Positions 1,407 to 12,398 are shown, counted from the first letter of the stretch. The stretch: DNA of 64,000 nt from an uncultured Spirochaetota bacterium (GCA_963734545.1 CAVTHO010000004.1:224001-288000); one strand, 5' to 3'. The notes: generated by a model from the sequence alone, not told the origin. Numbers and translations: made by a program.

Positions 1407-2650
1407 CTACTTTGCGGCGCCGACGATGGAGTCGATGTCCGCGGCCGCTGATTCCAGGGCCTCTGCCACGCCTTCATCTCCCGAAAAGGCGGAGCGCAGC
1501 GCGCGGACCCAGCGCTCTCCGACCTTCAGGTAGCCCGGCACGGGCGTGATGAGAACCCGCGCGTCACTTTCAATAAGGCGCCGCGCCACGGCGTAGAAGT
1601 CACCCCACTGGGAGGCGAGCCTTCGGAAAAGGGGATCCTCCCAGGTGCTGCGCCGCGTGGGGTCCATGTTTCCCTCGAAGGCCGCACGCAGCAGGAACTG
1701 CTTGCCGGCCGCCCATTCGATGAAACGCCACGCGTTCTCCTTGTTCCGGGACCGGGAGTTCATCACGAGGGACCAGGTCCACAGGTTCGATACCCTGCGG
1801 CCCGAGGGCCCGAGGGGAGGCAGCGTATAGCCGACCTTTCCCTTGAGCGCGGACTTGGGATCCAGCTCGTAGAAAGCGACGTAATGGTCCGAGTCCACGA
1901 TCAACCCGTAGCGGCCGGCGGCGAAATCCATGGCAAGCTCATACCAGCGCTGACTCAGCCAGTCCGGGGGCCCTCCCCTGGCCAGCCCTTCCACGAACGC
2001 CGCGGTGGCGGCGATGCCGTCCGCGGAGGCGATTGCGCATCTGCCCTGGTCGTCGAAGTCGCGGGCGCCGTACGCCCAGAACTGGGTGGCGTAGCCCGTG
2101 TACATCGTGTGCCAGACCTGGGTGCCCCGCTGGGCGAATCCGCGCGTCAATCCCTTTGACCTCTGCTGAAGAAGCCCGGCGACTGCGAAGAACTGGTCCC
2201 ACGTGCGCGGAATCTCGCAGTGGTGCTGTTCCAGGAGGGCCGGCACGTACGCAAGGTTGTACGTCTCGCAATTCACCGGGATCTCCCACAGCGCGCCGGC
2301 ACCCAGCCGATCTCCGAGTTTTCCCGTCCATCGATTGTTCGTCAGGAGGGGCCCGAAGAAATCTTCGACGTCGAAATCGGCGCCGGCGCGCGCAAGGAAT
2401 GGATCGAGGGGTTCGACGTACTCGGCGCCGATGTGCTCCCACAGCAGCACCGGTCCCGACATGTAGACGTCGGCGCGATCCTCACCGTCCAGATACCCGT
2501 GGATCTCGTTGGAGAAGTAAAGATCGCTGGGGATTATCCGGAGATCGAGGTCCTGACCGGTGATCTGCCTGAACTCATCCGCATGACGGACCACTGAATC
2601 GACGAAGGCATCGGTATCCGGGCCGAAGAACCTGACCGGTGAGCTCGTAT
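1407..2650 (-). CDS. ABC transporter sugar-binding protein (SBP family 1), apparently without signal peptide
   Basis: ORF 1407-2594; the frame stays open upstream (TSSPVRFFGPDTDAFVDSV) to an AGGAGG RBS at 2655-2660, where the ATG appears to lack a base; C-terminus AWRFIEW...EALESAAADID. Confidence 0.75.
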
Positions 2651-2664
2651 CGTACCTCCTCTAG

Positions 2665-4300
2665 TCACGCAAGATACTTGGCCCTCAACGCCACCTTGTT
2701 GATCTTGCCGACGCTGGTTTTGTCTATTGCATCCACGAACCGTATCTTGATGAGGAAAGCCTCGCGGGGAAGCACGCCCTTGTCCGCGTAATTCTTCACG
2801 TGCGCGGACAGCTCCTTCTCCGCGACCTTCTGATCCTTTTTCAGCACGACGAGCGCCACGGGGATCTCTCCCCAGGTGACATCGGGCTGGCCGACGACCG
2901 CGGACTCCGCCACGGCCTGGTGCGTGGAGAGGATGTCTTCCAGCTCCAGCGAGGACAGCCACTCTCCTCCCACCTTGATGATGTCCTTGCTGCGGTCCGT
3001 GATGCGGACCGATCCGGCGGCGTTCATGCAGGCTATGTCCTGCGTATGCATCCAGCCGCCCTCCCAGAGCCTCTGCGAGTTTGTCTGGTCCTTGAGGTAC
3101 CCCTGGGTGAGCCACGGCGCGCGCACCACGATCTCGCCGCTCGCCTTGTCGTCCCGGGGCACTTCCCCGCCTTTCTCGATCGATGACCTTGAGGTTGACG
3201 AGGGCGAACGGCCTGCCGGTGCGGCAGCGCAGGTCCGCCTGTTCCTCCATTCCCAGCGTCAGCTGCTCCGTGCTGAGCTGGCTCAGCGTCAGGACCGGGC
3301 ACGATTCCGAAAGGCCGTAGCCGACGGAGACGTCCACTCCCCGCTTGAGCGCGGCGATTGCCACAGACTTCGGAAGGGCCGCGCCGCCGATGAGGACCCT
3401 CCAGCCGGAAAGGTCCACGGCCGCGGCCGCCGGGCTGTTCACCAGCATGTTCAGGATTGTGGGGACGCAGTGGGAGAAGGTGACCTTTTCTTCCGCAATC
3501 AGCTTGAGGAGGATTTCCGGCACGTACTTGCCGGGATAGACCTGCTTGACCCCGAGCATCGTCGCCACGTACGGGATGCCCCAGGCGTGCACGTGGAACA
3601 TCGGAGTCAGCGGCATGTACACGTCTTCCCGATGAAATCGGCCCTGCGTGACGGCGGTGCCGAGCGTGGCAATGGCGCCAAGGGTGTGCAGGACGAGCTG
3701 GCGATGGCTGAAGTACACCCCCTTGGGCATGCCCGTTGTACCGGTTGAATAGAACGTGGTGGCGCGCGTGTTTTCGTCGAAGTCGGGAAACTCCTTTATC
3801 GGCTCAGCGGATGCCAGGAGGGCTTCATACTCAGCGTCGAGCGTCACCGCGGGAGGAGTGCCGGTTTCATTGATGAGGACGAACTTCTTCACCGTGTCGA
3901 TTCGGCCCTTGATCTGGTCCAGGATCGGCAGAAAATCCGAGTTGACGATGATGACCGCGTCCTCGGCGTGGGAGATCGTGTAGACGAGCTGCTCCGCGGA
4001 GAGACGGACGTTGACCGTGTGCAGGACGGCGCCGATCATGGGAACGGCGAAGAAGCACTCCAGGTAGCGGTGGCTGTCCCAGTCCATCACGGCCACCGTA
4101 TCACCCGGCTTGACTCCGATTTTTCCAAGAGCCGTGGCGAGCCGGCGGACCCTCTCCTGGAACTGCCGGTAGGTGAAGCGCAGCGTCCCGCGATAGACGA
4201 TTTCCTGGTCGGGATTGTCTACCACGGGCCCGAACATGAGATTCTTGATCAGGAGGGGGTAGCCGTAGGCGGATTCAGTTTTGAAAATGAGATTCTCCAT
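2665..4300 (-). CDS. Fatty-acid--CoA ligase (AMP-binding, AlkK/DmdB-like), frameshifted near 3170
   Basis: YSTGTTGMPKGV and GYGLSE motifs in one frame; DRSKDIIKVGGEWLSSLELE and KTSVGKINK in the ORF 2665-3162. Confidence 0.88.
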
Positions 4301-4378
4301 TGTGTCTCCTCGGGGTGAGTGAAACCGAAATGTCGGATCTTGACAACCGGCAGCGCATGCGACTGGATCATATCCAGA

Positions 4379-5863
4379 TTGGAAAAGCCTCTGTACCTTT
4401 CCGCGTCCAGCCACTACAGCCTCTATCGCCCCACCCTCTGCGAAAGGCGCGTCTACCTTGCCGCGCATGGGGAGCCTTCGCCGCCGGCATCCGATTTCGA
4501 TGTCCTGCTGAGAGACCTGGGCGAGCGGCATGAAAAGGAGCACCTTGCCGCCTTTCCGCAGTACAAGGATTTGAGCGACGGAAATCTTGCGGACCGCGCG
4601 CAGCGCACGCGGGATGCGGTTGCGCACGCGGAGCCGGTGATCTACCAGGGAGCACTTCGCGCCGCGTTCCCGGGTTCCCGCGACATTGTGTCGGGCAGCC
4701 CGGATTTCATGATCCTCGACGGGCAAAGCTACCGCATACGGGACTGCAAGCTCGCGCGGAGCATGGGCAATGGCAGGCACCCGGAGATCGATCTCCAGCT
4801 CCAGACCTACGGGTGGCTCTTCGAAAGGACTTTCTCCAGGCCGCCGTCGGCGCTCGAGGCATATCTCGGGAACCGCACCATCAGCGCAACTCCCTACCGC
4901 GGCGCCGAGAGCGCAGTGAAAGAGATTGGCCGGATCCGCGAGCTCTCCCTTCGGGAGGACGAGCCCTATGATCCGGTCGGGTGGACAAAGTGCGGCGCGT
5001 GCGTCTTTCGCGAGCGGTGCTGGACCATGGCGGAAAAAGCGCATGACGTGTCCGTCATTTACCGGGTGGACAAGGGGACTGCGCGGGCGCTGCGTGACAG
5101 GGGGATCACGACCTGGGACCAGCTCCTGGACCGCATGGACGCCAGAGCGCTGGCCAGATTGAAAAGACCGTGGGGCCCCCGCACCCAGAAGGTCGGCGGG
5201 CAGGCTGCGCGGATTCTTGCGCAGGCCCGGGCGCTCGCGGAGGGCAGGGTCGTCAGGCTCGGCAGCTTCGATCTGCCGCGCGCGGCGAGCCTTGTCATGT
5301 TCGACCTGGAGGGCATTCCTCCCCAGTACGAGGAGCTGGACAAGGTGTACCTGTGGGGCATCCAGGTGTACGGACCCGCCGGCGCCGTCGGTCCCTACAC
5401 TCCGGCCACTGCCGGGTTCGGGCCTGAAGGGGACCGCGCAGGATGGGAGCGATTCCTCGCGAACGCGCGTGAGATCCTGAGAGAGCGCGGGGATGTCCCG
5501 TTCGTCCACTGGCACGACTACGAGAAGAACAAGCTCAGGGAGTATGTCGCACGGTACGGAGACCCGGACGGAACAGCGGCACGGGTCCTCGCCGCGTGTT
5601 TCGATCTCCTGCCGGTGGTGAGGGACTCCCTTGCGCTGCCCGTGCCGAGCTACAGCCTGAAGGCCGTAGAGGGACTTGCCGGATTCGAGCGGACGATGAA
5701 GGAGTTCGGAGGGGACTGGTCCATCGGCCGCTACATCCGCGCGGTGGAGAATGAAGACGAGGCGGAACGCCGCGCGATCATGGACGAGATCCTTCGCTAC
5801 AACGAGGAAGATCTCAAGGCAACGTGGGCTGTCTTCCAGTGGGTGAAGGGGCTAGCAGGGTAA
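4379..5863 (+). CDS. TM0106 family RecB-like nuclease with C-terminal RNase H-like domain
   Basis: SGSPDF...DCK and QLQTY RecB-type motifs; Cys set LCERR...KCGACVFRERC; HhH-like segment; FDLEG...YLWG...YSLK...YNEEDL; start uncertain (GTG 4319 or TTG 4379). Confidence 0.85.
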   Translation: MEKPLYLSASSHYSLYRPTLCERRVYLAAHGEPSPPASDFDVLLRDLGERHEKEHLAAFPQYKDLSDGNLADRAQRTRDAVAHAEPVIYQGALRAAFPGSRDIVSGSPDFMILDGQSYRIRDCKLARSMGNGRHPEIDLQLQTYGWLFERTFSRPPSALEAYLGNRTISATPYRGAESAVKEIGRIRELSLREDEPYDPVGWTKCGACVFRERCWTMAEKAHDVSVIYRVDKGTARALRDRGITTWDQLLDRMDARALARLKRPWGPRTQKVGGQAARILAQARALAEGRVVRLGSFDLPRAASLVMFDLEGIPPQYEELDKVYLWGIQVYGPAGAVGPYTPATAGFGPEGDRAGWERFLANAREILRERGDVPFVHWHDYEKNKLREYVARYGDPDGTAARVLAACFDLLPVVRDSLALPVPSYSLKAVEGLAGFERTMKEFGGDWSIGRYIRAVENEDEAERRAIMDEILRYNEEDLKATWAVFQWVKGLAG

Positions 5864-7208
5864 ATACTTCGAGGAGGGCGGAGTCGCCTCCCACGTTCCC
5901 GGGGAAAACGATGTAGGGAACGTCATTCCATTGCCCTTTGCCGGTCAGCCGCCAGACCGGAACACCCTTGATCACCTGGCCCAGTACATCTGCCGCCTCC
6001 ACCCCCAGGGCGCTCCGCGCGAGCTCGATGCTCGTGATCCCGCCCTTTGCAATGATATAGGCCGGTCTCCCCGTGATACGGCGCACCGTTTCACACAGGG
6101 CCGCCATGACTGCCTTGCCCGTTGCCAGGAAATCCTCGGACTGATCCCGCGTGCGGGAAGTGAAGATCACCGGTGTGGTCCCGCGCTCCAGGCACAGGCT
6201 TGCTTCACGCGCAATGCGTGCGACCTCCGGCGAGGATACCTGCAGCTCGATTCCCTGGACCCCCTTCGCGCGCAGGAGCATCTCGAGCTGCCGGGTGGTT
6301 TTCGTCACGTAGGAGCCGATGACGACGAGCCCTGCCCTTCCTTCCGGCTCGATCCCTTCCCGGGTCAGGAGAGGCCGGTCCTCGATACCCGCGCGCGCCT
6401 TTACGAAAGAGGCTGCCGTGCGATAGACAAAGCGTTTGCCGCGGCTTTCCGCCTCGATGACACCGAGCGCCAGCGCTTCCAGGTCTTCGTAACCGGCCGC
6501 ATTTGCGACGATCGGAATTCCTTTCTCCGCCCGGCAGAGGACCTCTGCAGCGAATGCAGGGCCCTTCAGCCTCAGCTCCCGGACCGGGATGCTCATGACG
6601 TCGCGGGCCTTCGTGTTCCCCCTGCTCTTTTCTTCCACCCAGTCCTTGAGGTTGCTGTGCCGGAAGCCAAAGTCAGGGTCGCGCGCGAACTCGGTCAGAT
6701 GCGCCGCAACGAGCTCCGTCCCCTCGTCGACCCAGTGGATGTCGTTGAGGGTATAGCGCCCCGCTTCGAAGAATGCGGGCACGAGGATGACGCCGTCGAT
6801 CGGACGGGAGAGCTCGGACACGAGCGCCGAGACCTCGGCGGGGAAATGGCCGCGCAGCGTGCTGTCGCTGCGCGAAGCCACCACGAAATCCACGGCCGCT
6901 GCCGCGGATGTTCTTTGCAGTGCGCGGCCCAGCTCCGCGGCAAGCCCCGCCGCCTGGGCCTCGGGAAGACTGCGGGAGTTCGTGGAGATATAGAATACGG
7001 GGTCCCCGCGGCGGAGCGCCGCGGCGAGCGTCGATTCCGACCAGTCCATGTAGACCCGCACCCCGTGAACCGTCTGTGTCCCGGTCGGGTCATCATCGAT
7101 CACGACGAGCCGCTTTCCCGACTTCTCGAGGCTGCTCCGGATCGCGCCGCGGGCGCCCGTGATTCTCATGGGCGCGGGAAGCTGCGACAGCGCGGCGGCA
7201 AGCGTCAT
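5814..7208 (-). CDS. Four-carbon acid sugar kinase family protein (DUF1537/YgbK-like)
   Basis: VIDDDPTGTQTVH, RSDSTLRGHF, AKGGITS and VFPGNVG motifs; ATGA overlap with the SET gene stop. Confidence 0.9.
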   Translation of the reverse strand: MTLAAALSQLPAPMRITGARGAIRSSLEKSGKRLVVIDDDPTGTQTVHGVRVYMDWSESTLAAALRRGDPVFYISTNSRSLPEAQAAGLAAELGRALQRTSAAAAVDFVVASRSDSTLRGHFPAEVSALVSELSRPIDGVILVPAFFEAGRYTLNDIHWVDEGTELVAAHLTEFARDPDFGFRHSNLKDWVEEKSRGNTKARDVMSIPVRELRLKGPAFAAEVLCRAEKGIPIVANAAGYEDLEALALGVIEAESRGKRFVYRTAASFVKARAGIEDRPLLTREGIEPEGRAGLVVIGSYVTKTTRQLEMLLRAKGVQGIELQVSSPEVARIAREASLCLERGTTPVIFTSRTRDQSEDFLATGKAVMAALCETVRRITGRPAYIIAKGGITSIELARSALGVEAADVLGQVIKGVPVWRLTGKGQWNDVPYIVFPGNVGGDSALLEVFTLLAPSPTGRQPTLP

Positions 7209-7648
7209 GCGCCCGAGCCGTTCCGCCCGTTCTTCCTTGCGCAATGGAGACAGGCGCACCCCCTGGGCTTTATGAACTCGTCGAAGTACTCTTTTCCATA
7301 ATCGTATGAGAGCTCTTCCCCCGCGGAGATGTTCCTCTTCGCGTATATGAAGATCTTCAACCGGGAAACCTGCGCCACGCAATTCGGCCTGCAGGAGTGA
7401 TTGATATAGCGGCTCAGGTTCTCCCGGCCGCTGCCGTCAACGGTCCATCGCTTGTTCACCTGGAAAAGGTAGCGGCTGTTGAGGAGATCCGCTTCCGCGT
7501 TCGGCAGGAGCCTGCCCGTGTACTCAATGACAAGGTCCCCTTTTGAAATGCGCCTGCTCGCGAAAAGCCCCAGCCCGATTGGCGTCCGTCTCAGGGCAAA
7601 CTTGCCGTTGGTTCCTCCCATATGAGTGGCATAGTTTGTATCAGACAT
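7205..7648 (-). CDS. SET domain protein-lysine N-methyltransferase with post-SET cysteines
   Basis: GLGLFA, IEYTG, RYINHSCRPNC, GEELSYDYG and post-SET CACLHC. Confidence 0.93.
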   Translation of the reverse strand: MSDTNYATHMGGTNGKFALRRTPIGLGLFASRRISKGDLVIEYTGRLLPNAEADLLNSRYLFQVNKRWTVDGSGRENLSRYINHSCRPNCVAQVSRLKIFIYAKRNISAGEELSYDYGKEYFDEFIKPRGCACLHCARKNGRNGSGA

Positions 7649-8291
7649 TCCCGCGCGATGCAATGGCGCAGCAACTCGTGTGCTTCCCGGAAGCTGCCGC
7701 AGGCCAGCCATGGGCCCAGGTGATCAAGAAACTCCTGGCGGGGCAGGGCGATGACCACGCGTGCGGTCATGAATGCCTGCGAGCCGCAATGGACCAGGAA
7801 CCCTCGGTCAACTACCCCCCGCTCAATACCGAGGCGCAGGGGCGCCCAATCCCGATTCCGAAGACCCTGGCCCTCCACGAACCGAAAGCCGACCGTCTCC
7901 CGTGGGGTGGATGCGACAAGGTCGATCTCTTCGCTTTGAAAGTCGTCGTGATGCGCTCTGTCAGGGAGGCTCGCAGCATGGCAAGGCTGCTGCCGCCAAG
8001 TGTCTCGATCAGCCGGCAATTCCGAAGCAGCACGTGAGGGGGCCGGCCTGCCAGGGACGGCAGCACACGGACCAGACCCGCAGTCTCGAGCGACGCAATG
8101 CGATGCAGGACCGTATGGTAGGAGATGTCGAGGCGTCGCCCGATTGCAGACGCATTCAGCGCCTGCCCATTGCAGGTGGCAATCTCCCGCAATATCTCCC
8201 GCGCAAGCGGCGTGCGCCATTCCAGCCAGTGCAGGCCCTGCGGATCCGCTGTCATCAACTGGTCGGATTTCCTCGTACGCATGCTCGCCAT
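7591..8291 (-). CDS. wHTH + DUF4143-like degenerate protein, frameshifted near 7945
   Basis: Frame 1: NGQALNASAIGRRLDISYHTVLHRIASLETAGLVRVLPS (wHTH as in AAA/DUF4143 proteins). Frame 2: EEIDLVASTPRETVGFRF...GFLVHCG...VIALP; no Walker motifs. Confidence 0.55.
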
Positions 8292-8302
8292 TGGTGAAAA
8301 CG

Positions 8303-8333
8303 CGGAATTTAGAACTGGCACTTCTAAATTCCG
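8303..8333. promoter_or_regulatory. Perfect 12-7-12 inverted repeat, candidate operator
   Basis: CGGAATTTAGAA-ctggcac-TTCTAAATTCCG in the AT-rich divergent intergenic region. Confidence 0.65.
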
Positions 8334-8419
8334 TAAAATCGCAAGGCTTGCGGGTCGGTCATCGGAAAATCGCAGCCGGTACCGCGGCGGCCTGACCATT
8401 TTTCCGATAATGGGGTATA

Positions 8420-10345
8420 GTGCACGAATTGACCGAACCAAGCAGGGCAAGCTTCGACAGGGTCCTGGAACAAAAACCCACCCACGAATTGTGGTCGTCC
8501 CACAATGAAGAGTTCTGGTCCAAGGACCCCTACTATCATCTCCGCCTGGGAGAGAAAGCAGACACGAGCGGCCAGTCAATGCTCGCCCACGACATCTTCA
8601 AGGACGGCCTGCGATTGTTCCCCGGCCATCCGCGCCTGACCCAGCTCTACTGCCGTACCCTCATCAATTGCGGGTTCCTTCTCACCGCGCGGGACCTGCT
8701 CACCGACATGGTGAAACGCGGACACTTCGACGAAGAGACGCTGGGCATTCTCGGCCGGGTCTACAAGGAGATGTGGTTGATCGAGGGCAGCGGCGCTCCC
8801 GATCACCCGCATCTTGTGAAGTCCCGCGAGGTGTACCTGGGGGCGTTCAACCGCAGCAAGGGCGTCTGGACAGGCATCAACGCGGCAAGCCTCAGCCTGA
8901 TCATGGGAGACAGCGCACAGGCGGAACGGCTGGCGCGGAAGGTGATCCGGCTCTGCGCGGCGGCCTGGAGAAAGCCTCCCTACGGAGACTATTGGACCGT
9001 GGCCACGGTGGCGGAGGCGTTTCTCCTGCTGGGCCGACAGGAACAGGCGGCAAGGTACTACCGCATTGCGCGGACGCGAAGCGGGCAGGATTATTCGAAG
9101 CTGGCAAGCACGCGCCGCCAGCTCAACCTGCTCGCCCGTTACACGGCAATCGATCCGAAGGTCATGGAGACTCTCCGCATTCCACCCGTGGTGGCATTTT
9201 CAGGCCACATGCTCGACCAGCCGGGTCAAAGACGCCCGCGTTTTCCGGAGAAGGCCTCGGAGCCCGTGAGGCGGAGCATCGCGGAGATACTGGAGCGGTT
9301 CGACGTGCGGATAGGCTATGCCTCGGCGGCCTGCGGGGCGGATGTCCTGTTTCATGAATGCCTCCAGGACCGCGGTGGAGAGAGCAACGTGGTGCTCCCG
9401 TTCGCGCGCGAGGACTTCATGGAAACGAGCGTGCGCTTCGCGGGCCCCGCGTGGGTCAGGAGAGCGGAGGGCATCCTCGCGGGAAGCTCAGTGGTGGAGC
9501 AGGCCACCCGGGGCGGATACGGAGGAGAAGATCAGCTTTTCTCCTACGCCAATCGGCTCATCATGGGCAAGGCGATTCTCCGCAGCCGTTTCCTGGAGAC
9601 GGAACCGCTCCTTCTTGCCGTGTGGGACGGAGCTCACGGCGGAAAACCCGGAGGAACCGGGGAAAGCGTCGAGACATGGAGGGCAAGCGGCTTTCCCTAT
9701 GTCGTGATCAAGCCCGCAACGGCGTCAGTGGAGGAGCACGCGGGCAGCCGGCGCAGGATGAGCAGGCCGAGGGCTCGAAGTGAAAGCGCGGCACACGCCG
9801 GTCGGCAGACGGTTGCCATCCTCTTTGCCGACATTGTCGGGTACAGCCGGCTCCGGGAGGAGCAGATCCCCCACTACGTGCAGGGCTTCCTCGGCGGATT
9901 GGCCCGGATAGTTCAACGCGCCGGGCATGAGCCGCTCTACAAGAACTCCTGGGGGGATGCGATCTGCTTCATGTTCGCGGATCCCCTCGAGGCGGCGGCC
10001 TGCGCCCTGGCAATGCGCGACATGGTCCGGCACACCGACTGGGCCAGCCTCGAGCTGCCGAAGGACCTCAACATCCGCATAGGCCTGCACGCCGGCCCCG
10101 TGTACGGCTTCCACGAGCCGCTGCTGGAAAGGCGGAATTTCTTCGGCTCCCACGTCAATCAGGCCGCCCGCATCGAGCCGATCACCAGTCCGGGCAACGT
10201 CTACTCGAGCGAATCCTTCGCTGCCCTGCTGCTGGCGGACGGGAGGAACCGGTTCGACTGCCGCTACGTCGGGGTCATTGTTCTGCCGAAAGAATTCGGA
10301 AGCTATCCGATATATCATGTGAAGCGAATGACGGAAGTGGGATGA
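8420..10345 (+). CDS. TPR (TPR-S/MAP3K TRAF-binding-like) + SLOG-like + class III nucleotidyl cyclase
   Basis: ETLGILGRVYK, WTGINAASL, DYWTVATVAEA (TPR); AFSGHMLD...SAACGADVLF...AVWDG...GGT (SLOG-like Rossmannoid); LFADIVGYS, NSWGDA, RIGLHAGPV, FFGSHVNQAARIEP (cyclase). Confidence 0.88.
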   Translation: MHELTEPSRASFDRVLEQKPTHELWSSHNEEFWSKDPYYHLRLGEKADTSGQSMLAHDIFKDGLRLFPGHPRLTQLYCRTLINCGFLLTARDLLTDMVKRGHFDEETLGILGRVYKEMWLIEGSGAPDHPHLVKSREVYLGAFNRSKGVWTGINAASLSLIMGDSAQAERLARKVIRLCAAAWRKPPYGDYWTVATVAEAFLLLGRQEQAARYYRIARTRSGQDYSKLASTRRQLNLLARYTAIDPKVMETLRIPPVVAFSGHMLDQPGQRRPRFPEKASEPVRRSIAEILERFDVRIGYASAACGADVLFHECLQDRGGESNVVLPFAREDFMETSVRFAGPAWVRRAEGILAGSSVVEQATRGGYGGEDQLFSYANRLIMGKAILRSRFLETEPLLLAVWDGAHGGKPGGTGESVETWRASGFPYVVIKPATASVEEHAGSRRRMSRPRARSESAAHAGRQTVAILFADIVGYSRLREEQIPHYVQGFLGGLARIVQRAGHEPLYKNSWGDAICFMFADPLEAAACALAMRDMVRHTDWASLELPKDLNIRIGLHAGPVYGFHEPLLERRNFFGSHVNQAARIEPITSPGNVYSSESFAALLLADGRNRFDCRYVGVIVLPKEFGSYPIYHVKRMTEVG

Positions 10346-11307
10346 GGGGTATGGCAGCAAAGAAGAAGAAAAAGAGGCCCGCATCGCGGAAAAAGACCGG
10401 CCGCAAGCGCCTGGCAAAGCGCGTCGCAAAGCGCGTCGTCAAGCGCGCGAAGAAGCGGACAACCCGCCGCGCCCCCAAGCGCGCGCCAAAGCGGAAGAAG
10501 AAGCGGCCTGTCCGGCGCAAGACCGGCTCGGCAAAGCGCAAGGTCGGCCGCAAGGTCCGGCGGAAAGTCGGCCGCAAGGCCAAACGAAAGACAGCCCGCA
10601 AGAAAACACGCAAACCGGCACGCAAGACGGCCCGCAAGCGGCCCAAGACCGCCGCGCGCAGGAAGAAGAAGCCTGCCCGGCGCAGGACTTCCGCCAGGTC
10701 GCGGCCCGCCCGAAAAAAGGCACGGGCCGCGAAGCGCAAGCCGGCGCGCAGAAAGACCGCTGTCCGGAAGAGCAGGAAGCCGGCGCGCCGGTTTCCCAAG
10801 GCGCCCGCGGCCGCGGCCCGCAAACGGACGCCGGGGTTCTCCCTGCGCAAGCTGGCTGCCCGGCTGAGCCCCGGCATCAAGCCTCCGATCGAGGCCTACA
10901 GCGGCAACAAGCCGTACATCTTTGCCAGCTATTCTCACAAGAACATCAAAGAGGTGTTCTGGTGCATCAAGAAGCTGGCGGAGAGCCGCTACAGGATCTG
11001 GTACGACGAAGGGATCGAGCCGGGCAATGAGTGGCCCGAAGAGGTGGGCCGGGCGCTCACGGGGTGCCAGCTCTTCCTGGTATTCATGAGCCCGGCGGCC
11101 ATGGATTCCCGGAACGTGCGTAACGAGATCAACTTCGCCTCCAGCGCGAACAAGAGCATGATGGTGGTCATGCTGCAGCCTGCCGGCCTGTCAGAGGGGA
11201 TGCAGCTTCAGATCGGGACTGTTCAGTTCGTCAGCAAGCACGAGATGACGGACGCCGAGTTCCTGGAGAAGATGAAGAAGGTGCTGGACCCCTCGCTCCG
11301 CGTCTGA
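10342..11307 (+). CDS. TIR domain protein with N-terminal histone H1-like Lys/Arg-rich tail
   Basis: About 175 aa of mostly K/R/A/P/T with no D/E, then YIFASYSH...IWYDEGI.PG.EW...FLVFMS...SRNVRNEINFA; starts at 10342 (ATGA overlap with the cyclase stop) or 10351. Confidence 0.88.
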   Translation: MRGMAAKKKKKRPASRKKTGRKRLAKRVAKRVVKRAKKRTTRRAPKRAPKRKKKRPVRRKTGSAKRKVGRKVRRKVGRKAKRKTARKKTRKPARKTARKRPKTAARRKKKPARRRTSARSRPARKKARAAKRKPARRKTAVRKSRKPARRFPKAPAAAARKRTPGFSLRKLAARLSPGIKPPIEAYSGNKPYIFASYSHKNIKEVFWCIKKLAESRYRIWYDEGIEPGNEWPEEVGRALTGCQLFLVFMSPAAMDSRNVRNEINFASSANKSMMVVMLQPAGLSEGMQLQIGTVQFVSKHEMTDAEFLEKMKKVLDPSLRV

Positions 11308-11321
11308 GGAGGGGCCCGGTT

Positions 11322-12398
11322 TCAGTCGAGACGGACCGCGCGGCCCGTCGCGGCGGATTCGACCGCCGCAAAGCAGATCCTCAGGCTGTTCACGGCATCC
11401 GCAATGTGCGCCGAGAGGTCGATGTCCTCGGTAATGGCGCGGTAGAGATATTCCTGCTCGCGGCGGCACAGCTCGTTGTGGTCCGGCTCGTCGGTGATGC
11501 GTATGATCTCGTCCTTCTTCGCCTGCAGGCCGTTCGCGTCCGGCGTGCTCGCGTGCACGATGATCGAGTCCACCGTGGTGTGCTGGGACACGTCGGCGGG
11601 ATCCACCCGGCGCGCGTCCTTGTCGATGCTCACGCAACCTTTCGGCCCGATCACGTCCTTCACGAAGAAGGCCGTCTTGCTCATCATGGGGCCCCAGCCC
11701 ACCTCGTACCAACCGACGGACTTGTCCTCGAACACGACCTGCAGCGCGCCGTAGTTGCTCGCATCCGGGGCGATCTCCTCGGAGACCCGGGCCGCGATTC
11801 CCTGGACAAGGACGGGCCGGGCCCGCGTCATCTGGCACATCACGTCCACGTAGTGCACGCCGCAGTCCACGATGGGCGGAACCTGCGCGATGAATGACTT
11901 GTGCACCTCCCACTCGCGGCCCCAGCTCTGCTGGTTGAGGTTCATGCGCATGATCAAGGGCTTGCCGAGGGTCCGGGCAAGCTCGATGAATTTCGTCCAT
12001 GCGGGGTGCACGCGCAGGATGTAGCCGATCAGCAGCTTGCGGCTCGTCTCCCGTGCGACACGGGCCACCTCCTCCGCTTCGGCAACCGTGTGCGCAATTG
12101 GTTTCTCCATGAACACGTGGCAGCCGCGCTTCATGGCGCTGATCGCATAGGGGGCGTGAGTATCGGCGAGCGTGTTGATCGACACCACGTCCGGCTTCAG
12201 CTCCGCCATGGCCTTCTCGAAATCCGTGTAGATCGGAATGTCGAGCGCGAGGTCAGCGGCGAGTCTTGCCGCGCGGTCCACGTTCCTTGCCACGACGAAC
12301 CCGGCCACCTTGAAGCCGGGCAGCCTCGCGTACCCCCGGGCGTGAGACGCGCCCATGCCGCCCACTCCGACGACCAGCACTTTCACAGGAGAACGCAA
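11322..12398 (-). CDS. Gfo/Idh/MocA family oxidoreductase
   Basis: VGVGGMG Rossmann motif, HVFMEKP, VDCGVHYVD. Confidence 0.92.
   Translation of the reverse strand: MRSPVKVLVVGVGGMGASHARGYARLPGFKVAGFVVARNVDRAARLAADLALDIPIYTDFEKAMAELKPDVVSINTLADTHAPYAISAMKRGCHVFMEKPIAHTVAEAEEVARVARETSRKLLIGYILRVHPAWTKFIELARTLGKPLIMRMNLNQQSWGREWEVHKSFIAQVPPIVDCGVHYVDVMCQMTRARPVLVQGIAARVSEEIAPDASNYGALQVVFEDKSVGWYEVGWGPMMSKTAFFVKDVIGPKGCVSIDKDARRVDPADVSQHTTVDSIIVHASTPDANGLQAKKDEIIRITDEPDHNELCRREQEYLYRAITEDIDLSAHIADAVNSLRICFAAVESAATGRAVRLD

Follow-up and report, generated by a model that had tools for sequence, protein, structure and literature searches.

What does a long polybasic tail, free of acidic residues, do on a bacterial TIR protein? 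The question is raised by a gene in a 64,000-nucleotide stretch of DNA from an uncultured wetland bacterium of the Spirochaetota (GCA_963734545.1, CAVTHO010000004.1:224001-288000), here called the window; positions are counted from its first letter. The first-pass annotation, made by a model from the sequence alone, had described the product as a histone-like polybasic tail fused to a TIR domain, and had proposed that the tail binds DNA, RNA or polyphosphate, for example incoming phage DNA, or drives condensates that activate the TIR. We found that the gene is preceded by, and coupled to, a second gene that the annotation had not mentioned. This gene encodes a TPR-S (Tetratricopeptide Repeats-Sensor) domain, a SLOG-fold domain and a class III nucleotide cyclase, and it puts the TIR protein in a new light, as the producer of the signal in a two-gene module. 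By analogy with characterised systems, the best reading of the pair is a Thoeris-like TIR signalling system that is unusual in two respects, a conserved disordered polycation on the TIR protein and a cyclase output.

The tail is as extreme as had been described. Residues 1-180, counted from the ATG at 10342, comprise 47 Arg, 46 Lys, 31 Ala, 14 Pro, 11 Thr, 8 Val, 7 Gly, 7 Ser, 4 Leu, 2 Met, 2 Phe and 1 Ile. Lys and Arg thus make up 52% of its 177-180 residues (the length depends on the start codon), there is no Trp or Tyr, and the first Asp or Glu is residue 184. If Asp and Glu are assumed to account for 11.5% of residues, the chance of 183 acid-free residues is about 2e-10. The net charge of the tail is +93 from 10342 and about +92 from 10351; the C-terminal 141 residues are of ordinary composition, with a net charge of -1. 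GC content at third codon positions in the tail (0.83) agrees with that in the TIR part (0.89) and in the upstream gene (0.79).

The short repeated units that had been pointed out are present, with KTARK at residues 83 and 95, KPAR[K/R] at 91, 110, 133 and 146, and KVGRK at 67 and 75. We judged their frequency against 20000 composition-preserving shuffles of the tail. Four copies of KPAR[KR] compare with a shuffle mean of 0.085 and two of KVGRK with a mean of 0.005, counts that none of the shuffles reached, and TARK occurs twice against a mean of 0.13 (P=0.006). The excess arises because the tail DNA holds four degenerate period-12 arrays (2.2-4.8 copies, 73-87% matches), which correspond to four-residue units such as KRVA, RKVG and KTAR; as had been remarked, the DNA is not a perfect repeat.

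Can the tail be called histone-like? In the AlphaFold2 (AF2) model, built from a 57-sequence alignment, it is a disordered coil with a predicted local distance difference test (pLDDT) score of about 49 and no histone fold. Pfam searches of the tail at E values up to 5 matched no family, HC2 (PF07382) included. HC2 was matched by 6 of the 57 family members (best E 9.6e-8), and on the sequences compared the likeness of the tail to HC2 is one of composition. The description therefore holds in the sense of a linker-histone or Hc2-type low-complexity polycation and fails in the sense of a histone fold or an HC2 match of its own. The comparison of TARK with the context of histone H3 K9 had to be abandoned. 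The motif results from duplication of a KTARK unit within a sequence rich in Lys, Arg, Ala and Thr, nothing supports a histone mark, and we rejected both a histone-fold and an H3-tail meaning for it.

An open reading frame (ORF) by itself proves little in this window, which is 63% GC, because two minus-strand frames are likewise open across the tail; we regard comparison with relatives as decisive. Downstream of residue 4 no ATG, GTG or TTG occurs in frame before residue 205, a position already within the TIR fold of the AF2 model. Therefore, a whole TIR domain cannot be made from these codons without translating the tail; initiation at one of them inside or after the tail, an outcome that would have undone the original proposal, is excluded. 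Of the two start codons that had been offered, 10342 and 10351, the conserved one is the ATG at 10351 (MAAKKK). In the related locus L001 the ATG equivalent to 10342 (within GGATGA) does not share the frame of the TIR gene, one contig from a wetland metagenome lacks base 10346, between the two ATGs, and the protein database entry P0003 is the 318-aa form. In the DNA of L001, L006, L009, L016 and L079, an MA(K/T)KKK-type start still follows directly after the upstream gene. In combination, these comparisons indicate that the tail is real and translated.

Homologues retain the tail, the absence of which from close relatives would also have counted against the original proposal. We gathered 258 proteins that align over at least 115 TIR residues, 124 of them with at least 58% TIR identity. 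Among these 124 relatives, 93 have an N-terminal extension of at least 60 aa with at least 25% Lys/Arg and almost no Asp/Glu, and 29 have only basic stubs of 35-57 aa. One of the remaining two looks like a chimeric call (P0039) and the other has a hydrophobic N-terminus (P0133). When we checked the DNA behind short or broken forms, the low-complexity stretch was frameshifted in L006, L009 and L016, and L001 and L079 had a run of N. In assemblies of metagenome-assembled genomes (MAGs), the tail region is broken by N-runs or frameshifts at L001:5300-5500, L006, L009, L016, L077 and L079, and gene callers often begin inside the tail, which yields "TIR-only" database entries of 176-200 aa. The tail architecture is under-reported because assemblies break tails and gene callers cut them off.

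What is conserved about the tail is evident from 13 clean genome loci, in which it is 29-61% identical to that of the window, with many gaps, and the TIR domain is 71-92% identical. The tails of these loci have 0-1 Asp/Glu, a net charge of +91 to +116 and a length of 191-303 aa, which suggests selection on total tail charge. Together with the window, these loci (a subset of L002-L019) span 177-303 aa and 38-52% Lys/Arg, and the longer tails are more dilute. Across related loci, tail length ranges from 111 to 337 aa, and distant members have a lower charge density (30-34% Lys/Arg over 111-224 aa). The acid-free, Lys/Arg-rich frame, and no other, is kept across 30-100% TIR divergence. Population indels were taken from contigs of four wetland-metagenome runs (X1-X4), each a single low-depth contig. 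They comprise tail indels of 42 nt, 36 nt and 48 nt net (37 inserted letters plus an 11-nt overlap) and a further +1/-1 pair 4 nt apart, and every one keeps the frame. The only sequence-conserved part of the tail is the linker FPKAPA...FSLRKLAARL...KPP, kept in closer relatives. We conclude from these alignments that the tail is conserved in charge and composition, not in sequence.

The domain behind the tail is well supported as a TIR. Pfam TIR_2 (PF13676) matches residues 193-302 with 58.1 bits against a cut-off of 28 (E 1.6e-15), and matches 57 of 57 family members. The model of residues 190-318 has pLDDT 83-94 and a flavodoxin-like TIR fold. Fold comparison with VIA gave Z scores of 15.6-14.2 to Hydra TRR-2, SPARTA TIR-APAZ, SARM1, AbTir and ThsB (root-mean-square deviation (rmsd) 2.4-3.0 over 116-132 residues), and Foldseek placed the TIR against SARM1 at 1.6e-7. 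Sequence searches of PDB chains with the TIR domain or the family profile gave no match. All 110 aligned TIR domains, of which 77 come from proteins without a polybasic tail, have Glu at the position of Glu262, which in the model lies in helix 257-268, after strand C (244-249). We take this position to be that of the catalytic Glu of NAD-cleaving TIRs, as in work on SARM1 and bacterial TIRs. Judged by alignment and model, the TIR domain keeps intact active-site-type residues, and NAD cleavage is most likely its activity.

The partner protein combines sensor-type domains with an enzyme. Its TPR-S domain matches PF20308 with 56.5 bits against a cut-off of 27.6 (E 4.4e-15; 3.8e-16 for the N-terminal piece alone), and Pfam also reports MAP3K_TRAF_bd (2.8e-7). 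The cyclase domain matches Guanylate_cyc (PF00211) with 43.9 bits against a cut-off of 21.9 (E 2.6e-11). The 14 aligned orthologues all have D471, D513, N580 and R584; the first two are presumably the metal-binding residues and the last two the transition-state residues of class III cyclases. Pfam assigned no family to the middle domain (residues 245-441), which is modelled with a pLDDT of 91.5. In VIA its neighbours are YpsA (2nx2; Z 18.2, rmsd 2.3, 155 aligned residues), DprA (12.6), ShosA (12.0), LOG (10.8), MCP (9.8), TRPM2 (9.8) and the SLOG domain of ThsA (7.0). Foldseek also matched it to YpsA (2.2e-6), and the ESM Atlas returned only unnamed clusters (0.78). From the model we conclude that the middle domain is a Rossmannoid fold of the SLOG superfamily, closest to YpsA and well separated from unrelated folds.

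How tightly are the two genes linked? In 12 of the 13 clean loci, 4 nt separate the partner stop codon from the conserved TIR start, and in L005 the gap is 3 nt; with the window included, the 3-5 nt spacing implies translational coupling. In a scan of genome contigs the cyclase gene (62-86% identical) lay directly upstream of the TIR gene (72-93%) in 19/19 loci, all from spirochaete MAGs. It was also upstream in 11/11 further loci of the class (61-87% TIR identity; the window's own locus not counted) and in 7/8 loci of another class of the phylum. Locus L086 (G561:C17:28933-32367) has a 35%-identical cyclase homologue downstream of its polybasic TIR gene, not upstream. Altogether, the partner adjoins the TIR gene in 38/38 related spirochaete loci and is upstream in 37. 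Besides the overlapping frames of both genes, no ORF family occurs in more than 9 of 21 compared loci, and synteny with the window extends beyond the pair only in the two closest loci, L001 and L002. On this evidence of gene order, we consider that the cyclase-TIR pair is a conserved unit, an obligate two-gene module.

Among 25 genomes of the window's family, the TIR and TPR-S/SLOG genes are both present in 18 and both absent from 6, and the 25th (G019) has only a 35%-identical paralogue. The pair is accessory, because it is absent from three family genomes that are 96-99% complete. It is nonetheless kept widely, in 18/25 genomes of this family (f1), 5/8 of f2 (from a class sample with 15/401 positives) and 13/17 of f68 (from a phylum sample). 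A plasmid collection gave no match, and a phage collection gave one match, 34% identical and unannotated.

Type I Thoeris (the TIR protein ThsB with the SLOG-SIR2 protein ThsA) is likewise a two-gene unit in which a TIR with a conserved Glu stands beside a SLOG-fold sensor protein. ThsB is a structural neighbour of the spirochaete TIR (Z 14.2), as is the ThsA SLOG domain of the partner's middle domain (Z 7.0). The pair also shares with Thoeris-type systems in general the arrangement of a TIR gene in an operon with a sensor-domain effector gene. Unlike type I Thoeris, it has a class III cyclase, not SIR2, as its output, an extra N-terminal TPR-S domain and a polybasic TIR tail, and its SLOG domain is nearer to YpsA (Z 18.2) than to that of ThsA. 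In the relevant passages of a Thoeris survey, the ThsA SLOG domain binds the TIR product 3'cADPR, a cyclic ADP-ribose (10.64898/2025.12.03.692087). SLOG domains of the YpsA clade are implicated in cADPR sensing in a further excerpt (PMC9503650).

The TPR element has counterparts as well. The effector ThsI of type VIII Thoeris, as summarised in the survey, joins a CMP-hydrolase domain to a TPR region, the latter predicted to act in TIR signalling by Aravind and colleagues (10.64898/2025.12.03.692087), and a section of the BcTpr preprint lists YpsA-Tpr assemblies beside TIR-Tpr ones (10.1101/2023.05.26.542521). Type VIII Thoeris and the Bacillus cereus BcTir/BcTpr pair resemble the spirochaete locus in placing a TIR gene beside a protein with a Rossmannoid nucleotide domain and TPRs. 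This comparison is by description, not sequence, and the spirochaete partner differs in its N-terminal TPR-S, its YpsA-like SLOG middle and its appended cyclase; the consulted parts of those sources mention no polybasic tail. Pycsar (PycC with, for example, PycTIR) also has a cyclase gene adjoining a TIR gene, and the partner matches PycC, though far too weakly (3.2e-6) to place it in that family. It differs in that here the cyclase protein has its own sensor domains and the implied order of signalling is reversed. Pycsar membership was rejected, as the TIR protein has no cNMP (cyclic nucleoside monophosphate)-binding domain at E values up to 5 for the tail and 0.01 for the whole protein. In the literature that we searched, neither a polybasic or H1-like tail on a TIR protein nor a TIR/SLOG/cyclase system is described, although the partner architecture may already be catalogued in specialist surveys.

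The tail finds its likeness elsewhere. Chlamydial Hc2, Pseudomonas AlgP and Streptomyces DdbA are acid-poor, low-complexity sequences rich in Lys, Arg, Ala and Pro, with short degenerate repeats whose gain or loss changes their length. As reported in part of the chlamydial literature, Hc2 varies in size by lysine-rich pentamers (PMC2848022), and DdbA is described in the section concerned as an H1-like domain joined to another functional domain (PMC3643593). The spirochaete tail differs from these H1-like proteins in being much richer in Arg than the Lys/Ala/Pro type, in being fused to a TIR enzyme and in having no HC2 match.

The reading that we prefer, with a probability of roughly 0.5, is a Thoeris-like module in which the tail-tethered TIR makes an NAD-derived signal, the SLOG/TPR-S protein senses it and the cyclase provides the output. 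The TIR would cleave NAD+ into an ADP-ribose-derived nucleotide, the SLOG and/or TPR-S domain of the partner would bind this nucleotide, and binding would switch the class III cyclase, with emission of a cyclic nucleotide or consumption of nucleoside triphosphate (NTP). The tail would be a localisation and activation module of the TIR, H1/Hc2-like, that keeps the enzyme bound to a polyanion. Nucleic acid is the likeliest polyanion because of the composition and length of the tail and the HC2 matches in 6 of the 57 family members. TIR enzymes require self-association for activity, and scaffolding or charge neutralisation on the polyanion may control it. Given the sequence, it is plausible that the tail binds DNA, RNA or polyphosphate and that the TIR is activated by clustering. 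What the tail binds, what the TIR makes, which way the signal runs and what the system does for the cell are inferences.

A bolder form of this reading, which we regard as doubtful, is a polyanion-templated TIR relay. In it the polycation would condense the TIR on nucleic acid, the cell's own or an invader's, whose state would set TIR activity, and the NAD-derived signal would pass to the SLOG/TPR-S domains and from them to the cyclase. There is precedent in plants, whose TIR proteins become active when they form condensates or when they assemble on nucleic acids, according to the portions of two reports that concern us (PMC10972746, 10.1101/2021.11.09.467869). The likeness lies in the idea that a TIR enzyme becomes active when a scaffold raises its local concentration. 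The difference is that in plants the TIR domain itself assembles, and here a separate disordered polycation would bind the scaffold.

Several points weigh against the Thoeris-like reading. The neighbours of the pair in the window are sugar-transport and metabolic genes, with no defence island. The module is single-copy, present in 18/25 family genomes and absent from plasmids, a pattern that fits housekeeping equally well. The killing or arrest outputs of Thoeris-type systems (SIR2, a membrane-spanning region or a nucleotide hydrolase) are missing, the sole further domain being the cyclase, and a cyclase output is absent from the main text of the Thoeris survey as far as the excerpt extends (10.64898/2025.12.03.692087). 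The Thoeris models of PADLOC and NCBIfam were below threshold on both proteins. The PADLOC matches were Aga_TIR (1.5e-5) and PDC-S66 (0.009) for the TIR protein and PycC (3.2e-6) for the partner; NCBIfam ThcB4 scored 15.3 bits against a cut-off of 220, and Pfam ThsB_TIR 21.1 bits against 21.2. Sister TIRs carry membrane anchors at the tail's place, which makes anionic lipid of the membrane a serious alternative to DNA as the polyanion. Finally, with a charge of about +92 the tail would be constantly bound to the nucleic acid of the host, which leaves the switch unexplained. Specific sensing of incoming phage DNA, suggested at first, is without support for the same reason, since a constitutive polycation would bind the cell's own nucleic acids too.

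Of the alternatives, the one that survives best, although we think it unlikely, is that the pair is a housekeeping input to a cNMP network and not an immune system, with a nucleoid- or ribosome-bound TIR reporting NAD+ or nucleic-acid status to the cyclase. The genome has 29 class III cyclase-domain matches and 23 cNMP-binding-domain matches, with only one TIR_2, so that such a network is amply represented. The sugar transport and metabolism neighbours, the single-copy gene in 18/25 family genomes and in several families (13/17 in f68), the lack of plasmid matches, the single 34%-identical phage match and the shorter basic tails on other proteins of the genome all agree with this explanation. 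It is opposed by the combination of TIR, SLOG and TPR-S, which the literature, in the passages seen, treats as a hallmark of conflict systems. The pair is also missing from 6/25 family genomes, three of them 96-99% complete, and its flanks differ between species, as they do for an accessory module.

Where did the tail come from? Sister TIRs with membrane anchors, which the first-pass annotation had not mentioned, bear on this. The outside group (30-53% identity, 52 loci, many phyla) has the TIR at the N-terminus and varied C-terminal domains, among them FGE-sulfatase, LRR, TPR, WD40, trypsin, Macro and FtsK, and none of the 52 loci has a polybasic extension. In a quick maximum-likelihood tree of 110 TIR domains, midpoint-rooted, all 33 polybasic forms and seven forms with N-terminal multiple transmembrane (TM) segments make up one clade, with 97 support in the Shimodaira-Hasegawa-like approximate likelihood ratio test (SH-aLRT). 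Five of the seven multi-TM forms branch outside the subclade that holds every polybasic form. In two Leptospirales MAGs, L022 (3998-7284) and L028, the TPR-S/SLOG/cyclase gene (37% identity) precedes the gene of a TIR-first protein. The protein of L022 has 429 aa, begins about 180 nt after the cyclase gene and ends in a charged C-terminal region with one predicted TM helix. A scan of metagenome contigs with the TM-anchored relative P0153 found no relative, and in a phylum search with the same protein only its TIR part was matched, which returned further polybasic forms. Comparison of these loci suggests that the cyclase-TIR pairing is more widespread than the tail and that the tail occupies the position of the membrane anchors of sister TIRs.

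These relatives are the basis of a second alternative, that the tail is a peripheral membrane anchor on the anionic phospholipids of the inner membrane, with no role in nucleic-acid binding. It can appeal to the shared clade (SH-aLRT 97), in which five of the seven multi-TM forms fall outside the polybasic subclade, to the Leptospirales cyclase-TIR pair, in which a charged region and a single TM helix come after the TIR, and to the lysine-rich lipid-binding motif that anchors the animal TIR adaptor TIRAP, as stated in part of one source (PMC5796906). We consider it improbable for reasons of size and composition. There are no hydrophobic or aromatic insertion residues, with 2 Phe and no Trp or Tyr in 180 aa, and the composition fits DNA-binding tails of the Hc2/H1 type, HC2 being matched by 6/57 members. 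Tails of 111-337 aa with a charge of about +92 to +116 (the charge being that of the close clade) are also far beyond known polybasic lipid anchors. A secreted effector was also considered and rejected: the TIR protein has no hydrophobic N-terminus, and its sensor and cyclase partner has no membrane or export family match.

Still less probable is that the tail is an electrostatic autoinhibitor or bait, whose charge of about +92 keeps the TIR proteins apart by repulsion until polyphosphate or an acidic phage DNA-mimic protein neutralises it. Total charge is indeed steadier than length or sequence, TIR enzymes need self-association, and the H1-like AlgP has been linked to polyphosphate granules in the section of the report concerned (PMC9239181). 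Nevertheless, the sequence bears no sign of a specific partner, and distant members with 30-34% Lys/Arg indicate that a fixed charge threshold is not universal. Finally, we regard it as very improbable that the tail is not made at all and that annotation has mistaken a GC-rich open frame, or a leader that is not translated, for coding sequence. Such an explanation would accord with the two open minus-strand frames, with gene callers that often start homologues inside the tail (29 short forms) and with the lack of any listed RNA run covering 9800-11400, but not with the absence of a canonical in-frame start before residue 205, inside the TIR fold, with a Lys/Arg-rich frame that alone is acid-free across 30-100% TIR divergence and whose indels keep frame, or with a start 3-5 nt after the partner stop in the window and 13 related loci.

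The coordinates of the two genes and their parts are collected in Table 1.

Table 1. Features of the TIR gene and its partner in the window, with strand and the basis or detail of each assignment.
Feature	Position	Strand	Basis or detail
Partner gene, 641 aa	8420..10345	+	Stop TGA 10343-10345; nominal GTG start 8420
TPR-S (Tetratricopeptide Repeats-Sensor) domain, residues 61-158	8600..8893	+	PF20308
YpsA-like SLOG-fold domain, residues 245-441 (predicted)	9152..9742	+	AF2 model, fold comparison
Class III adenylate/guanylate cyclase catalytic domain, residues 463-620	9806..10279	+	PF00211
Spacer, partner stop to conserved TIR start, 5 nt	10346..10350	+	Gene coordinates
TIR-gene ORF	10342..11307	+	321 aa; 318 aa if started at ATG 10351
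Polybasic acid-free disordered N-terminal tail	10351..10881	+	177 aa from ATG 10351, 180 aa from ATG 10342
Weak predicted helix LRKLAARL, residues 168-175	10843..10866	+	AF2 pLDDT 54-58
TIR domain, residues 190-318	10909..11295	+	Pfam TIR_2 and AF2 model
Candidate catalytic glutamate, Glu262 codon GAG in SRNVRNE	11125..11127	+	Invariance, model position

Around the pair, we identified one promoter-like site, at 8392-8421, which overlaps the nominal GTG start of the partner gene, and eight terminator-like sites against 4.4 expected, none of them at a gene end. Rfam gave no family between 7000 and 12000. The interval 7383-8419 (about 1 kb), between a sugar-kinase-like gene (5814..7382, minus strand) and the cyclase gene, holds no Pfam-assignable ORF. 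An ORF at 7812..8579 (minus strand) has 42-51% tblastn matches in L001 and L002 and no family match. Farther upstream, an AMP-binding enzyme ORF (2534..5515, minus strand) and an ORF of the RNase_H_2 superfamily (4319..5863, plus strand) overlap at 4319-5515, and both are matched in L002.

Elsewhere in the same genome (G000), shorter acid-poor tails rich in Lys, Ala and Pro occur at C3:62911-63999, C9:283589-284335, C8:613547-614368 and C5 near 120743, all on the plus strand. Among the tailed ORFs are a metallo-beta-lactamase-type hydrolase (by eye) with a C-terminal tail of about 100 aa, the C-terminal part of a PEP (phosphoenolpyruvate)-utilising enzyme (by eye) with an AKKPAAKK tail of about 80 aa, and a 274-aa ORF whose cNMP-binding match is below threshold and whose basic tail has 50 aa. 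Judged from these ORFs, the lineage seems to have a slight tendency to equip its enzymes and signalling proteins with basic tails. At C6:280165-280503 (plus strand) a 113-aa Lys/Ala/Pro-rich ORF (MKKKPATVKK...) shares sequence, in a different frame, with the 5' end of the gene at C6:280128-281354 (plus strand), which encodes a cNMP-binding domain and, judged by eye, a GGDEF-type domain. This ORF may be a polybasic N-terminal tail split off by a real or assembly frameshift.

What would the spirochaete pair mean for TIR signalling? If the relay is true, an NAD-based immune signal would be converted to a cyclic-nucleotide signal in a two-tier second-messenger cascade, and the TIR would be a bacterial counterpart of the condensation-activated TIRs of plants; we found neither described for bacteria. 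More generally, if the partner reads the TIR product, NAD-derived and cyclic-nucleotide signalling would be linked, a link that the accessible parts of the Thoeris surveys do not include. For the study of how bacterial TIR proteins perceive their triggers and are activated, the polybasic-TIR family offers a simple, testable case. Here the part responsible for sensing or localisation would be a conserved block of charge (about +92 to +116 in the close clade), not a folded domain. That sister TIRs have membrane anchors in its stead suggests that the variable which controls the TIR is its placement on a surface of polyanions. If the Thoeris-like reading is true, searches limited to defence islands would miss TIR systems that, like this one, lie among metabolic genes.

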